Shown piece by piece: positions 1 to 4,567 of a stretch of DNA of 4,567 nucleotides. Below the pieces are notes generated by a model. It made no database searches. It had not been told where the DNA came from and saw nothing but the letters and a program-made list of their open reading frames with translations. Origin of the DNA: a virus (lineage: Duplodnaviria; Heunggongvirae; Uroviricota; Caudoviricetes); the IMG/VR virus record IMGVR_UViG_2671180473_000005. One strand, given 5' to 3'. The translations under genes and the position numbers were made by a program. Positions within the stretch are counted from its first letter, which is position 1; each line of letters opens with the position of its first letter.

Positions 1-64
1 GTCACTCTCGTCTGGGGAATATCTCCCCGGCAGCCTTCAGGGAAAAATATCATCAGATGGCTGC

Positions 65-418
65 TTAAAAAAAGAACAAATGGTAGTGTCCGCTATTGCC
101 AGTACACCTCAATTGCTCTGCGGCTTCGCTCAGAGCTGGCGTATGTTCCCGGCCTACTGATTCACACAGGTAATCAACGAAACCGGACACCAGTTTTCGT
201 TCGCGAGGCGTGATCGCCCCACCGACCGGAGTCCAGTAATCGAAACCCAGTTGCAGGAGTTTGAAAAAACGCTTGTGGAATGCGTAGTTACACACACGCT
301 TAAAGTCTGCGTGTATCCACTCACCTATTTTGATTTGATGCAGAAAATCGCAACTCTCCGGCGTCGCCGGGAGAAGTAATCCGGAAGAGGTTTGTTTGAC
401 CAGTTGTATATGTGCCAT
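65..418 (-). CDS. hypothetical prophage protein, 117 aa from the ATG; probably truncated or frameshifted at its 3' end
   Basis: Minus-strand ORF. ATG at 416-418 is preceded by GGAG about 7 nt upstream; the track ORF 65..460 starts at a TTG overlapping the upstream stop. The protein ends ...GHYHLFFF then TAA at 65-67, immediately after a 7-nt homopolymer (plus A-run 67-73). A neighbouring frame stays open to the window edge. No family recognised. Confidence 0.5.
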   Translation of the reverse strand: MAHIQLVKQTSSGLLLPATPESCDFLHQIKIGEWIHADFKRVCNYAFHKRFFKLLQLGFDYWTPVGGAITPRERKLVSGFVDYLCESVGREHTPALSEAAEQLRCTGNSGHYHLFFF

Positions 419-456
419 CGGCTTTCTCCGGTGGCACGGTGTTACACAGCAGGAGT

Positions 457-744
457 TCAATCCTGCTCAAGATTGTAGATGAGTTTATTCTTCAGCAAAA
501 GCAGAAAACCAGCCTTAAAACCAATCTCTTTCAAAACCCGTAATGATGTGACAAATTCGTCCTCACGCAAAATAAAACCGTCCGTCAGAAGTCCATTACA
601 AAAATAAAATAACACAGCACCGCTCTTCCTTTGTTGAGATTGCAAACATCTAATGCGGCAATGGCTGACAATCGCTCCATTCTCAACGCGCACAGCATAG
701 AGGCCATTTTCACTAAAAATTTCACGCAATTCTTCGATTTTCAT
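457..744 (-). CDS. hypothetical small protein, 95 aa
   Basis: Minus-strand ORF with ATG at 742-744 and an AAGGA Shine-Dalgarno about 8 nt upstream (minus sequence tggaaggattctgaagATG). Coding region is AT-rich, about 40 percent GC by hand count over 481-660. No family recognised. Confidence 0.5.
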   Translation of the reverse strand: MKIEELREIFSENGLYAVRVENGAIVSHCRIRCLQSQQRKSGAVLFYFCNGLLTDGFILREDEFVTSLRVLKEIGFKAGFLLLLKNKLIYNLEQD

Positions 745-825
745 CTTCAGAATCCTTCCAGATAAATAGCTCTCCCCTGTTCGGGGTCCATCCCTCTTCT
801 CCCTGCGCGCTACTTAAGTGAGTCG

Positions 826-853
826 ATTCTATCTGCGAAGGTGCGCGAATCAA
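826..853 (-). promoter_or_regulatory. candidate sigma70 promoter for the 457-744 gene
   Basis: Minus strand reads TTGATT (853-848), a 16-nt spacer, then TAGAAT (831-826), about 80 nt upstream of the ATG at 744. Pattern match only. Confidence 0.3.
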
Positions 854-868
854 ATTCACCGGAAATAA

Positions 869-916
869 ACAACAAAAAACCCGCCGAAACGCTGAGAGAT
901 CACAGCGATGGGCGGG
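869..916 (-). terminator. intrinsic terminator downstream of hok
   Basis: On the minus-strand transcript: GC stem cccgcc(916-911) pairing with ggcggg(885-880), inner helix cgcug/cagcg, followed directly by UUUUUUGUUGUUU (879-867). It lies about 80-125 nt 3' of the hok stop. Confidence 0.5.
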
Positions 917-957
917 TTAAGTGCGGGTGCGTTGAGGATGCCTGACACATCAGAGGT

Positions 958-985
958 GGGCGGGGATGGGATCAGCTCCCCGCCC
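958..985 (-). other. GC-rich stem-loop in the hok 3' UTR
   Basis: Perfect 9-bp inverted repeat gggcgggga (958-966) / tccccgccc (977-985) with a 10-nt loop, starting 9 nt after the hok stop. No U-tract follows, so it is probably a stabilising or fold-back element rather than a terminator. Confidence 0.35.
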
Positions 986-993
986 GGTCACTC

Positions 994-1149
994 TTACTTC
1001 CTGGATTCGTAGTCTACGAAGACAGCGACCTCCGTCTGGCCGGTTCGGATTCGTACCTCACAGAGGTCTTTCCTCGTTACCAGTGCCGTCACTATGACGG
1101 TTAAACAGATGACGATCAGGGCGATTAACATCGCCTTTTGCTGCTTCAT
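994..1149 (-). CDS. hok: Hok family type I toxin (membrane-depolarising host-killing peptide), 51 aa
   Basis: ATG at 1147-1149, TAA at 994-996. Translation MKQQKAMLIALIVICLTVIVTALVTRKDLCEVRIRTGQTEVAVFVDYESRK has the Hok transmembrane helix and conserved LCE..R..G..EVA motif and closely matches HokD/HokC-type chromosomal Hok as recalled. An alternative frame is open from the gap edge to 1058, consistent with an overlapping mok-like frame. Confidence 0.9.
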   Translation of the reverse strand: MKQQKAMLIALIVICLTVIVTALVTRKDLCEVRIRTGQTEVAVFVDYESRK

Positions 1150-1159
1150 AGCCTGCTTC

Positions 1160-1389
1160 NNNNNNNNNNNNNNNNNNNNNNNNNNNNNNNNNNNNNNNNN
1201 NNNNNNNNNNNNNNNNNNNNNNNNNNNNNNNNNNNNNNNNNNNNNNNNNNNNNNNNNNNNNNNNNNNNNNNNNNNNNNNNNNNNNNNNNNNNNNNNNNNN
1301 NNNNNNNNNNNNNNNNNNNNNNNNNNNNNNNNNNNNNNNNNNNNNNNNNNNNNNNNNNNNNNNNNNNNNNNNNNNNNNNNNNNNNNNNN
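1160..1389. other. 230-nt run of N (assembly gap or masked sequence)
   Basis: Directly visible. 230 is not a multiple of 3, so any ORF drawn across it is artefactual. Confidence 1.
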
Positions 1390-2034
1390 GATAAGAGGGC
1401 GTCCCTGAGATTTGCGGTGTAGATTGGTATCGCGCAGAGAATACACACAGCCACAATATTCCTGCTGATAGAATTTTTCGCGCTTGCTGATTTCAATCAT
1501 ACGGGACGAGCCGCCCTGCTTGCGCCAGTTATAATCCCAGTACACCATGCCCGGATAATGCGCGACGGCTCGCCGCCCACAGTCGTTAACCTGCTGCATA
1601 TTTTTCCAGCGTGAAATGCCCAGTGAACTGCTGATCACACTGAAACCATTTTCAGCGGCGTACAGCGCTGTCCGCTCAAAACGCATGTCAAAACACATGG
1701 TGCAACGGATCCCTCGTTCGGGCTCCCATTCCATTCCTTTGGCTCGTTCAAACCAGTTGTCTGTGTCGTAATCAGCATCAATAAACGGCACGCCGTGTTG
1801 TTCAGCAAAGCGAATATTCTCATCCTTACGAATTAAATACTCTTTCTGAGGATGAATGTTCGGGTTGTAGAAAAAGATGGTGTAGTCGATTCCCGAGGCC
1901 TGAAGCGCCTCCATCACCTCACCGGAACATGGAGCACAGCAAGAGTGCAGTAGTAGTTTGTTTGCCCCGTTTGGGAGCTCCAATTTGGGCCGTTTGAAAT
2001 CAGCAACTGTCATAAATATGTTTATTGGGGTCAT
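1390..2034 (-). CDS. queH: QueH/DUF208 family epoxyqueuosine reductase-like protein; 3' end lost in the N gap
   Basis: 215 codons visible from ATG 2032-2034 (alternative ATG 2011-2013) to the gap edge. Carries the motifs recalled for the family: [37 protein letters not shown]. About 25 residues precede the LLLH motif, and neither ATG has a recognisable Shine-Dalgarno. Confidence 0.8.
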
Positions 2035-2181
2035 AAAAATATCAAAGAGTGTAGCATTAGAACGGGGCTATCGGAAACAGATGTGTGACTGCTCCCCGCC
2101 CTTTCGGGTGGTCTCCTGATGATTTGAGGGTGCAGAAATCCCTCCGGTTAAGGATTAAATTTTTAACAGTGCTAAATTTAA

Positions 2182-2538
2182 TTATTCAGTTCTGGATTTT
2201 GTCGCCCTGCGTATCCGCGCTTTCGCGTTACGCTCAATCTGTATCAGCTTTTCTATATTTCTCCGCCTTTCCTGTTCCTCCTGGCGCAATAGCCTTACAT
2301 CATCTGCCAGTCTGGTTTCTCTTTTTGCCACAGAGAGCATCCAGTCAAACGGCTCCACAACCGCACCGCAGATTTTACAGCGGACCTGACGCTCTTTTTC
2401 GTCAACCCGTACAGAGGCGTGATGGCAATATGGTCTTTCCGATGGCTCATAAAGAAAATTAACCTGATTACGAGGGTCATCCTCTTTTACCGGAAATAAA
2501 ACGATATTGCTTAACTCATCTTCTGGTTTTATTTCCAT
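2182..2538 (-). CDS. small Cys/His-motif (zinc-ribbon-like) protein with a basic coiled-coil-like C-terminus, 118 aa
   Basis: ATG at 2536-2538 is preceded by AAGGAGAGGAG. The longer track ORF starts at ATG 2593-2595, which directly abuts the upstream TGA (TGAATG), so that start is possible too. Motif PYCHHASVRVDEKERQVRCKICG, then an R/E/Q-rich tail. No family recognised. Confidence 0.55.
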   Translation of the reverse strand: MEIKPEDELSNIVLFPVKEDDPRNQVNFLYEPSERPYCHHASVRVDEKERQVRCKICGAVVEPFDWMLSVAKRETRLADDVRLLRQEEQERRRNIEKLIQIERNAKARIRRATKSRTE

Positions 2539-2595
2539 GCTCCTCTCCTTTGATGCGAATGCCAGCGGTAATTGAAGCCTGATAGCTAATTTCAT

Positions 2596-3018
2596 TCACA
2601 GTATCGCCTCCTGAAAATTACCCTGATAGAAAGCCAGTACACGCTGCATAGCTTCGCTCTTCCGGCACTCGCGACAGATTATATTCAGGCGCCTGTCGTA
2701 GCGGCGTATTTCTCCGTCAGGTAATGACCAGATAAGGTCCGGATCAACAACAACCGGTTTCCTCACCTTTACTCTCGAGAGTTTTTTGCGGGCGCTTTGC
2801 CAGTCCTTGCGAGCCTGTTCAGACGGGAATAAGCCGTAGCCAGAATTATATACATCACCACTTGCGACCAGTTCTATGCATAAGCGACCGACAGACGCAC
2901 GACTGATACCTGTTTCATCTGACAACTGCCGAATCGTGACCCGACCGTCCTGATGCACGAGTTCCACAATTCGCGTCTTCAGTTCTTCCCGCTGTTCGGG
3001 AGTAAAAGGTTTCGCCAT
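2596..3018 (-). CDS. winged-helix/HTH DNA-binding protein of the phage replication operon, 140 aa
   Basis: ATG at 3016-3018 with an AGGAGG Shine-Dalgarno 5-6 nt upstream, 14 nt after the DnaC-like stop. N-terminal segment ...VTIRQLSDETGISRASVGRLCIELVASGDVY looks like a helix-turn-helix. Exact family uncertain. Confidence 0.7.
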   Translation of the reverse strand: MAKPFTPEQREELKTRIVELVHQDGRVTIRQLSDETGISRASVGRLCIELVASGDVYNSGYGLFPSEQARKDWQSARKKLSRVKVRKPVVVDPDLIWSLPDGEIRRYDRRLNIICRECRKSEAMQRVLAFYQGNFQEAIL

Positions 3019-3032
3019 AAATCCTCCTGAAA

Positions 3033-3779
3033 CTACTTAACAACCCTCGAATGGCTAACATTCGGACGCCAGCTCTCCCAGTTAAAATTCACCCAGCGCC
3101 CGCCGTTCATGACCATGCGATCCATCACCCGCTCGCCGAGCAATGTTTTCATCACCTCATAGTTCAGGTTTGTCAGCATCCCCACGCTGCGCATCGACGC
3201 TGTCCGGCGATCAACAATCTGGTGCAGCACCACCTGCTCGTTTTTCGTCTCGCGCTGAATGCCAATTTCATCAAGAACCAGCAGATCCACTTCGCACAGC
3301 TCCCGCAAAAATTTTTCGCCTGACTGCCCGTCGTCATAGCTGGCGTGCAGGGCGCTCATAACATCAGCCACGGTAACCACAATCACTGTCTGACCGTCTT
3401 TCAGCAGGCGATTCCCGATAGCTGCCGCTAAGTGATTCTTCCCGGTACCAGGTTTTCCGCTGAACGCAAAATTTGTACACCCGGTCATCAGTTCATCGGC
3501 GATGGATTTCGCCTGGCTTAACGCGTATCGCTGGCCGTCGTTCTGCACCTGGTAATTCGCAAACGAGCATTTACGGTGCAACGGCTGGATGCCTGAGCGA
3601 TTCAGAATTTTTTCCACCCGCAACTGGCGATTCAGGCGGTTGATCTCCTCGCTACGTTTCTGGCCTTCAGCAAGTTGCCACTCGCGCCACTCCGCTACCG
3701 TTCTGAATGGGGCGGTTACATGTGGCGGGGTCAGTCGGCGGATGCGTTCCAGAACGCCGCCTGTCGCAATATTTTTCAT
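3033..3779 (-). CDS. DnaC-family AAA+ helicase loader (phage replication protein, IstB-like ATPase), 248 aa
   Basis: Walker A FSGKPGTGKNHLAAAIG and Walker B DLLVLDEIG are present. ATG at 3777-3779 lies 6 nt downstream of the stop of the initiator C-terminal frame, as expected for a replication operon. Confidence 0.9.
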   Translation of the reverse strand: MKNIATGGVLERIRRLTPPHVTAPFRTVAEWREWQLAEGQKRSEEINRLNRQLRVEKILNRSGIQPLHRKCSFANYQVQNDGQRYALSQAKSIADELMTGCTNFAFSGKPGTGKNHLAAAIGNRLLKDGQTVIVVTVADVMSALHASYDDGQSGEKFLRELCEVDLLVLDEIGIQRETKNEQVVLHQIVDRRTASMRSVGMLTNLNYEVMKTLLGERVMDRMVMNGGRWVNFNWESWRPNVSHSRVVK

Positions 3780-4133
3780 GGTCCGTTACCCCCTGAAGCC
3801 TGGCGGGATCGCACTGTCCGGCAACGAGACGGTGTTAACCTGTCGGAGCAACGTCTCAGGCCGAACACCTTTCGGCGCGAACAGGCCCTGGTATTCATTG
3901 GCGATGCTGTGTCGAATCACCTGCTCAGGTGTAAAACCCTGCTGACGGAATTTTTCCAGTTCCCGTATCGCCCCGTTAGCGCCCTGCTCCGTTCGAATCG
4001 GTTTTCGCAATGCCTGTCTGAACCGGACCCACTCATGCCAGAGTGTTTCCGGCAACCAATCGGGCAGCTCAATAGCCTCCGGCTCGAATTTTTTAGACGC
4101 TCGTTTTTGGCGAGGGGGAGATCAGTATTTAGA

Positions 4134-4154
4134 TCTTCCTCTTCCTCTTCCTCT
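4134..4154. repeat. hexanucleotide tandem repeat (TCTTCC) x3.5
   Basis: tcttcc tcttcc tcttcc tct on the plus strand. On the minus strand it encodes EEEEEE in the linker frame (RGRGRG and RKRKRK in the other two). Confidence 0.9.
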
Positions 4155-4246
4155 GGTAACGCTTTTTGATCCGTTTGTGTAACGCTGGCAGCGTTACCTT
4201 TTCGTTTCAGTTCGCGTATTTTTGTTACTCGCTCGTTTGTAACCGC
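4155..4246. repeat. cluster of dyad-symmetric TGTAACGC/GCGTTACA repeats, candidate replication-origin iterons
   Basis: Perfect 19-bp palindrome GTAACGCTG-G-CAGCGTTAC at 4179-4197; further half-site copies at 4155-4162 (ggtaacgc), 4224-4228 (gttac) and 4238-4246 (tgtaaccgc); motif cgtttgt(g)taac recurs at 4172-4183 and 4234-4243. Confidence 0.4.
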
Positions 4247-4386
4247 CCGTTTTTTTTAGAGCTTTTTCCGTTATGACGTTCAAAGTTAGGTAGAGAAAGC
4301 CCTCCGTCATTTTCGACCAGCCATCCAACCTGAATTAACGCATCAGCAAAACCAGACATAAAAGTGATGCGATCTATTGCACTTTT

Positions 4387-4407
4387 TGTAACGCCGCGAG
4401 CGTTACA
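4387..4407. repeat. second palindromic copy of the TGTAACGC half-site
   Basis: tgtaacgc (4387-4394), 5-nt spacer cgcga, gcgttaca (4400-4407): perfect 8-bp arms, inside the initiator N-terminal coding region. Confidence 0.4.
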
Positions 4408-4462
4408 ATCTGCATTACCGTCTATCATTTGTTGATCCGCCCATGCCCAGAAGCGAATAACC

Positions 4463-4567
4463 TGAGGTAGCCTGAGTTTAACGGACACTCCTTCCTGAAA
4501 TAGAATGGCATCAGAAGGAGCTAATAATGAGCAGAAAAACCCAACGTTACTCTAAAGAGTTCAAAGC
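4463..4567 (+). mobile_element. left end of an IS3-family insertion sequence (IS600-like), partial
   Basis: Sequence begins TGAGGTAGCCTGAGTTTAACGGACAC at about 4463 (IS3-family ends typically start TGA). About 64 nt later a GAAGGAG Shine-Dalgarno and ATG start an OrfA-like gene. The exact boundary is not established. Confidence 0.5.
4527..4567 (+). CDS. IS3-family transposase OrfA, N-terminus only (runs off the window)
   Basis: ATG 4527-4529 with AGGAG 6 nt upstream; translation MSRKTQRYSKEFKA matches the N-terminus of IS600-type OrfA as recalled. Confidence 0.6.
   Translation, partial: MSRKTQRYSKEFK

Follow-up and report, generated by a model that had tools for sequence, protein, structure and literature searches.

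A 4,567-nt stretch of phage DNA (hereafter, the window) carries reading frames that stop beside short homopolymers, which raises the question of whether its genes are broken or only misread. The initial annotation attributed three frame breaks to the loss of one base each in A/T homopolymers, and proposed systematic homopolymer under-calling in the assembly or, as a fallback, coordinated decay of a cryptic prophage by single-base events. The window is a 4.35-kb Rac-like lambdoid prophage remnant of the Shigella sonnei chromosome, and the frame breaks are real mutations fixed in this dead prophage. IS600 junctions account for two of the lesions; the others are a deletion of 10 bases and an altered A-run.

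The locus of E. coli FDAARGOS_944 (L001) serves as the intact reference. It shares the gene order of the window and differs from it by only five substitutions over ~4.1 kb aligned. The base-level alignment contains two indels, both within the initiator gene. Two IS600 copies in direct orientation flank the remnant (window 1–111 and 4463–4567). Between the flanking IS600 copies lie, besides the interrupted genes treated below, the following features.

457–744, minus strand: 95-aa gene of the Rem family (precomputed Pfam match; phrog_340), intact and identical to L001.
994–1149, minus strand: hokD, a type I toxin gene, intact (syntenic L001 annotation; PF01848).
1160–1389, unstranded: run of 230 N (mask), for which the locus L005 supplies the real S. 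sonnei sequence.
1390–2013, minus strand: queH, epoxyqueuosine reductase (PF02677), with its 3' end masked; intact in unmasked S. sonnei copies.
2182–2538, minus strand: intact hypothetical gene (phrog_1621) with an annotated length of 118 aa.
2596–3018, minus strand: DUF977 gene, intact (PF06163, E = 1e-33).
3033–3779, minus strand: ydaV, a DnaC/IstB-like helicase-loader ATPase gene, intact, immediately downstream of the initiator (PF01695, PF00308).

In L005, the masked stretch is 259 bp long and contains the sok antisense RNA (Rfam RF01794, 117 bits), the mok/hok leader and the last queH codons. The L001 copy of queH matches PF02677 with E = 1.8e-65.

The ends of the window account for one of the alleged breaks and for two of the lesions.

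1–111, plus strand: 3' end of IS600, comprising the C-terminus of the orfB transposase, its stop codon TAA at 66–68 and the right terminal repeat, which runs to ...CACCTCA at 111 (from identity to IS600 loci).
67–73, plus strand: A7 run, the alleged third break; it is native to IS600, overlaps the transposase stop codon, is also present in intact IS600 copies, and is not a lesion.
112–418, minus strand: codons 1–102, the 5' part of a DUF1367 / NinB-Orf-like gene that breaks off at the IS600 junction 111/112.
4460–4462, unstranded: ACC, duplicated on insertion of the right-hand IS600 (3-bp target-site duplication), in the Val36 codon of the initiator (from comparison with L005 and L001).
4463–4567, plus strand: 5' end of the second IS600, with the left terminal repeat TGAGGTAGCC... 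and orfA beginning at the ATG of 4527 (MSRKTQRYSKEFK...), assigned by identity with the left end of IS600 as found in L004.

All 111 bases of window 1–111 are identical to loci annotated as 'IS3-like element IS600 family transposase', with 3178 records at at least 99% identity; the segment is placed relative to the transposase CDS using L004. The terminal inverted repeats start with TG and end with CA, the left reading TGAGGTAGCC... and the right ...CACCTCA (reverse complement TGAGGTGTAC...). By sequence, this near-identity, the terminal repeats and the 3-bp duplication at the right-hand copy assign both window ends to IS600 (IS3 family).

Aligned with its intact 199-aa counterpart in L001, the DUF1367 fragment loses homology exactly at 112. 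The fragment matches phrog_319 and, over residues 1–103 only, Pfam PF07105, and its open reading frame continues for 15 codons into IS600 antisense before a stop at 65–67. The third break had been read as a frameshift at the A7 run, beyond which the protein would go on as LSSHLMIFFPEGCRGDIPQTRV. Since window 1–111 is IS600, this peptide is the antisense of the IS600 transposase gene and not DUF1367, and there is no break within the gene; the intact protein continues ...AEQYLNTVATRR. A reading of window 1–111 as a divergent DUF1367 tail was likewise rejected, because the sequence is IS600.

The two IS600 copies differ in their junctions. In L005, ACC flanks the right-hand copy on either side, and L001 has the target without an insertion, as ...AATAACCTTCCC. 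Both orfA and orfB of IS600 are called beside this junction in S. sonnei loci. The initial annotation had missed this fourth lesion, an IS600 with a 3-bp duplication in initiator codon 36. A target-site duplication was sought at the left-hand copy and none was found (AAC versus ATT). An integrase fragment lies on its far side. The left-hand copy is thus without a target duplication and joined to unrelated DNA, which points to a later IS-mediated deletion or rearrangement at that junction.

The initiator gene, directly upstream of the DnaC-like ydaV, carries the remaining lesions.

3786–4462, minus strand: body of a YdaU-family phage replication initiator pseudogene, codons 36–262 of a 262-aa protein in three reading frames.
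4250–4257, minus strand: T8 run (A8 in the sense of the gene), the true first break; by alignment, intact E. coli copies have six bases and a sister allele has an in-frame nine.
4106–4119, minus strand: the true second break, a scar left by the loss of 10 bp at 4112/4113 (from alignment with L001).

The N-terminal frame closes with ...HNGKSSKKNGRLQTSE*; the next runs KKRAVTNERV...EEEEEEDLNTDLPLAKNERLKNSS, and the last ...KKFEPEAIELPDWLPETLWHEW...GFRG*. When the T8 run is shortened to T6 and the 10 bp are put back in silico, the product is 100% identical to residues 36–262 of the intact 262-aa E. coli protein, which bears out the view that the fragments are parts of one protein. The peptide VSVKLRLPQ, taken before as the initiator N-terminus, is IS600 sequence; the real first 35 codons lie past the IS600 insertion.

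The intact 262-aa homolog matches phrog_2509 'replication initiation protein' over its full length (1–262 of 277 profile positions, E = 1.2e-89), and a close homolog is annotated by PGAP as 'phage replication initiator YdaU family protein'. In L001, L002, L003 and the S. sonnei loci, the gene is positioned between the cro/ydaT genes and the DnaC-like loader. Its C-terminal part is similar to primosomal/DnaT-like proteins. In Pfam, no family matches the intact protein at E ≤ 0.01, neither DUF1376 nor a lambda O-type domain, and the best match in Pfam and NCBIfam together is a sub-threshold 16-bit DnaT C-terminal one. The replication-initiator role is a prediction at the level of annotation. The gene order and the position of the initiator directly upstream of ydaV are those of the E. 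coli Rac-like module (cro–ydaT–ydaU–ydaV; L001), in which the initiator is whole, whereas that of the window has been hit by IS600, a 10-bp deletion and a change of run length. This initiator is of a 262-aa type that does not match Pfam DUF1376, as opposed to the 285-aa YdaU/DUF1376 type of a second S. sonnei prophage. Lambda O is alike in position and in presumed role within the lambdoid replication module, and residues 77–236 partially match phrog_678 'replication initiation O-like' (E = 7e-26), but the protein has no lambda O-type Pfam domain and its best full-length family is phrog_2509.

The N-terminal frame indeed stops 22 nt past the 4250–4257 run on the minus strand, and one added base rejoins the frames, as proposed. 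The first break is real and lies in a homopolymer. The proposed loss of one base does not hold against the intact E. coli copies checked, relative to which the run has gained two bases (6 → 8); only against the closest sister allele, a rare A9, does it lack one base. T6 is present in L001–L003 and L016; of 162 E. coli genomes matched, the 30 listed all have it as well. The in-frame A9 allele, with SSKKKR as predicted, occurs in three short contigs, from GCA_025275415.1, GCA_043803265.1 and SRR32959839, and the run is therefore polymorphic, with six, eight or nine bases. Two of the A9 contigs (L014 and L015) share two derived characters with S. sonnei, so A6 → A9 → A8 is as parsimonious as A6 → A8 followed by A9. 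As judged from these alleles, the direction of change is ambiguous: it may be a gain from six to eight relative to intact E. coli or a one-base loss from A9.

The second break had been ascribed to one base missing at 4089–4094, 4104–4108 or 4114–4118. All three runs have the length found in the intact homolog, and the lesion is a deletion of the 10 bp AGGGGGATTT, located between two AGGGGGA direct repeats. The window keeps one AGGGGGA; intact copies read AGGGGGATTTAGGGGGA, with the sense strand TCCCCCTAAATCCCCCT coding for L-N-P-P. The deletion is attributed to slippage between the two 7-bp direct repeats. In the 30 listed of 647 E. coli genomes matched, the segment has 106 bases versus 96 in the query, that is, no deletion. 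Neither T8 nor the 10-bp deletion was found among the best matches when sought in complete E. coli genomes. E. coli FDAARGOS_943 (766-bp match) likewise carries T6, and its 10-bp repeat is intact; the initiator gene there is 783 bp long, compared with 789 bp in L001, owing to an in-frame 6-bp difference outside the A-run and the 10-bp repeat. As to the runs originally named, T8 at 4250–4257, T6 at 4089–4094, T5 at 4104–4108 and A7 at 67–73 are present, but 4114–4118 is G5 and hence G/C rather than A/T.

The explanation that we hold with high confidence is that the window is a degraded remnant fixed in S. sonnei, with the initiator gene hit by three independent lesions and the DUF1367 gene by IS600. 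The three initiator lesions are the IS600 in codon 36, the change of the A-run to an out-of-frame length of eight, and the 10-bp deletion. One of them would have killed the gene first, and the others would then have accrued neutrally. Probably IS600 inserted before the other two arose, as an IS is usually what strikes first in S. sonnei.

It might instead be that loss of the initiator was selected, the firing of an origin in place being harmful to a prophage that cannot excise, hence the repeated independent hits. Both indels of 4.1 kb fall in the initiator, and ydaV, DUF977, queH, hokD and rem are intact. In addition, other homologs carry different lesions: L015 has an IS600-type end after codon 136, where the L013 and L014 contigs stop too, and the C-termini of P0119, P0127, P0109/P0131 and P0147 are frame-shifted or shortened. 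However, two indels are a tiny sample, for which the chance of both falling in the initiator is ~(678/4122)^2 = 0.03, uncorrected for the post-hoc choice of the gene, and some of the shortened homologs may be cut by a contig end or altered by a sequencing error. Once a first hit has made the gene neutral, further hits in it are moreover to be expected. We therefore regard selection as unlikely. An extended form is decidedly unlikely: across Shigella and E. coli lineages, Rac-like cryptic prophages would lose their initiator again and again in independent events, through selection against in-place origin firing and not through neutral decay, and the A-run would be a mutational hot spot. The lesions counted in that form are the differing IS600 sites, direct-repeat deletions and the A-run of six, eight or nine bases.

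Far less credible is that the genes are truly intact and that long-read homopolymer under-calling dropped one base at each of three runs. A single added base per site does join the frames arithmetically, the in-frame A9 allele is genuine, and noisy assemblies exist. Yet the second break is a 10-bp deletion next to runs of reference length, and the third lies inside IS600, where A7 is native. The 8-base run resembles a long-read indel error in being a length change in a homopolymer, but it differs in being reproducible and longer than the six bases of the intact reference, with other runs unaffected: among the homopolymer runs of at least 5 nt, 26 of 27 are the same as in L001, and the sole differing run is longer (8 versus 6). 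Five independent assemblies (L005, L007, L008, L009 and L011) show no base difference from the window. L005 and L007–L011 share with it the A8 run, the 10-bp deletion and the two IS junctions, and L012 has A8 and the two IS junctions. Judging only from contig sizes and accession types, these assemblies would be a mix of short-read and long-read ones. The noisy assembly among them, L010, has 5–6 single-base run errors elsewhere in 12 kb and still keeps A8 and the deletion. The exact 87-aa fragment protein is found on 492 contigs and the exact 117-aa DUF1367::IS600 fusion on 531 contigs, S. sonnei by source names. The window alleles are therefore not assembly artefacts. Systematic under-calling is contradicted by this recurrence and by the 26 matching runs, and a uniform set of one-base losses fails at the second and third breaks. 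The fallback is correct in substance as to the decay of a cryptic prophage; the decay is largely IS600-driven, and neither 'coordinated' nor a restriction to single bases applies.

Runs of 8–9 A or T are known from work on mxiE as transcriptional slippage sites in Shigella, but it is highly improbable that the 8-base A-run, polymorphic as it is, is a functional site at which transcriptional or translational slippage keeps low or regulated initiator expression: the IS600 insertion has removed the first 35 codons and the promoter-proximal part and the 10-bp deletion is a second frameshift, so that no single slip gives the full protein, and intact homologs have an in-frame A6 (SSKKR), so that slipperiness is not conserved at this site, A9 being in frame likewise. 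Programmed frameshifting was rejected on the same two additional lesions and the in-frame A6 of the homologs.

The preferred reading, a remnant degraded by IS600 and small indels, agrees with the published account of how the S. sonnei genome decays (Hawkey et al. 2020, PMC7373316). There, IS600 is among five expanded IS, IS-interrupted genes are later eroded by small indels, and lesions are fixed in the species; IS are the direct cause of 50% of pseudogenes, and in another 12% an IS is present together with other mutations that inactivate the gene (PMC7373316). Nothing essential differs here, the window being one locus of the described general process. IS600-led decay of prophages and genes is ordinary for Shigella and already known, and involves no new mechanism. 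The locus also calls for caution. Where a single base near a homopolymer would rejoin two frames, the break mimics a sequencing error, and here homolog alignment shows otherwise; pipelines or polishers that 'fix' such sites would make false genes. For S. sonnei, the locus is a further documented case of IS600-led decay of prophage and genome.

All genes in the window are on the minus strand. Megablast against complete E. coli genomes identifies a syntenic, almost identical region. At one such locus (L001, E. coli FDAARGOS_944), all genes of the region are intact and are arranged in the following order:

DUF1367 gene (199 aa)
95-aa gene
hokD
queH
gene for a 118-aa hypothetical protein
DUF977 gene
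ydaV (DnaC-like)
262-aa gene

The 262-aa gene is located upstream of ydaV, and ydaT and cro/cI-type regulators come after it. Positions 112–1159 and 1390–4463 of the window differ from L001 by five substitutions and two indel events only, both within the initiator gene (3786–4462, minus strand), the counterpart of the 262-aa gene. Its neighbours ydaV, DUF977, queH, hokD, and the 95-aa gene are intact. Homology to L001 ends abruptly at 111/112 and at 4463. The mask (1160–1389) puts 230 N in place of 259 bp of real sequence, and every coordinate to its right is therefore 29 bases too low. The masked stretch includes the end of queH, the mok/hok leader, and sok (Rfam RF01794, 117 bits), which is the antisense RNA in the hokD/sok type I toxin–antitoxin module.

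The intact 262-aa protein is a full-length match to phrog_2509 'replication initiation protein' (E = 1.2e-89), and a close homolog is named 'phage replication initiator YdaU family protein' by PGAP. Therefore, the label 'initiator' in the initial annotation is reasonable, while 'O-like' is warranted only by its location and a partial match in PHROG. A Pfam search with the intact protein gave no match. Three S. sonnei contigs (L006, L009, and L011) carry a second Rac-like replication module, in which another initiator type (285 aa, Pfam DUF1376) is followed by a ydaV-like gene, DUF1627, and DUF977. In some short-read assemblies this module adjoins the left-hand IS600, which may reflect joining through repeats during assembly.

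The initiator gene is interrupted by an IS600 insertion, a fourth lesion overlooked in the initial annotation. Window 4463–4567 is the 5' end of this IS600 copy, which has the same orientation as the left-hand copy and sits in the Val36 codon, flanked by a 3-bp duplication (ACC). On its far side, S. sonnei loci retain initiator codons 1–35, and 'VSVKLRLPQ', formerly taken as the initiator N-terminus, is IS600 sequence. Beyond the insertion and outside the window (L005:60–140), ydaT is frameshifted by a single-base deletion (CTGTTAGCC to CTGTTGCC), which is not in a homopolymer and leaves a called ORF of 101 aa versus 140.

At 4112/4113 the initiator gene has also lost 10 bp. One missing base in any of three nearby runs had been proposed here, but each run has the same length as in L001. 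Intact copies read GCG-AGGGGGATTT-AGGGGGAGATC, and a single AGGGGGA is left in the window, a pattern typical of slippage between direct repeats of 7 bp that lie 10 bp apart. With a 96-base probe over the deletion site, the matches in the best 30 of 647 E. coli genomes are 106 bases long. The true protein reads ...DLPLNPPRQKRASKKFEPEA, rather than the proposed join ...ERLKKFEPEA.

A further lesion in the gene is the run at 4250–4257, which is T8 in the window versus T6 in L001. Its length is also six in three further copies (L002, L003, and L016). With a 96-base probe over the run, the best 30 of 162 matching E. coli genomes all span 94 bases, and none of these listed matches scores above the six-base allele. 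Compared with intact copies, the window thus carries two bases more, not one fewer as had been suggested. Repair of both indels in silico gives 100% identity to residues 36–262 of the intact protein.

One member of the same 90% cluster, P0003, has SSKKKR, the very sequence reconstructed in the initial annotation. Its three contigs (L013–L015) have an in-frame 9-base run and an uninterrupted N-terminus. L013 and L014 are short GenBank contigs labelled S. sonnei by NCBI, and L015 is a short Logan/SRA assembly contig. In L015 another IS600-type end (one mismatch against that of the window) follows initiator codon 136, and the L013 and L014 contigs stop at that same point. The 8- and 9-base alleles are sisters with an ancestor already longer than six bases, because L014 and L015 have two derived characters in common with S. 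sonnei, a substitution and the single-base ydaT deletion. The 8-base run may have arisen from six bases by gain of two or from nine by loss of one. The upstream regulator region of L013 differs, indicating that the module is mosaic.

A hexanucleotide repeat in the gene at 4135–4155 (CTTCCT on the plus strand, GAGGAA in the gene sense) encodes the poly-Glu linker of the initiator; its copy number differs among genomes (+18 bp in L010), and the linker ranges from EE to EEEEEEEE in related proteins. The initiator gene of L003 is 6 bp shorter than that of L001, in frame and outside both the A-run and the 10-bp repeat.

The 65–418 ORF had been read as a homopolymer frameshift at 67–73. Window 1–111 is 100% identical to the IS600 3' end (3178 records at at least 99% identity), and the transposase stop codon is at 66–68; the A7 run thus belongs to IS600 itself. 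The DUF1367 gene is instead cut at the IS junction, keeping codons 1–102 followed by 15 codons of IS600 antisense. No target-site duplication flanks the left-hand copy (AAC versus ATT), and its far side in S. sonnei loci is an integrase fragment adjoining modCBA. Therefore, the left junction is an IS-mediated deletion or rearrangement, with no frameshift. For the DUF1367 protein (window 112–418; L001:1091–1690), a match to phrog_319 'NinB/Orf homologous recombination mediator' (E = 2e-68) hints at function more specifically than the Pfam DUF name does.

In exact-sequence look-ups, the 87-aa initiator fragment, which runs across the IS600 junction to the stop made by the 8-base run, is on 492 contigs, and the 117-aa DUF1367::IS600 fusion occurs on 531; the sources of both name Shigella sonnei. 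Outside the mask, five of the eight S. sonnei loci fetched (L005, L007, L008, L009, and L011) are base-identical to the window. L010 and L012 have the run length and both junctions of the window; in L012 (CP022459), extra IS copies have replaced the ydaV–DUF977 part. L006 has the left junction only, joined upstream to the different initiator type; the right junction, the A-run, and the deletion site are all absent. Over 12 kb, L010 carries real run errors, five or six single-base indels in homopolymer runs, one of them in the T7 run of IS600; even so, its run at 4250–4257 is 8 bases long and the 10 bp at 4112/4113 are missing. The frame breaks were in part correctly observed. Neither single-base homopolymer changes nor assembly errors are supported as their cause. 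Of the 27 homopolymer runs of at least 5 nt, 26 have the same length as in the E. coli reference, and the alleles recur in independent S. sonnei loci.

The lesions amount to the ordinary decay that a cryptic prophage undergoes in a genome rich in IS, which was the fallback of the initial annotation; this process is already known. Among S. sonnei pseudogenes, 50% are directly due to IS and a further 12% contain an IS together with other inactivating mutations, the latter class being read as an initial hit followed by further degradation (Hawkey et al., PMC7373316). The initiator gene fits this pattern. The 4.35-kb remnant lies between two direct-orientation IS600 copies (1–111 and 4463–4567), a substrate for further deletion.

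Judged by protein sequence only, initiator homologs from other genomes have independent lesions of their own. In P0109 and P0131 of S. flexneri the frame changes after ...RTEQG, which would fit an 11-bp deletion between GGGCG repeats; P0119 and P0127 look like one-base losses in the A6 and C5 runs matching window 4089–4094 and 4114–4118, respectively; P0147 is also among these homologs. Such different lesions leave room for a modest hypothesis, that loss of the initiator may be favoured in defective prophages.
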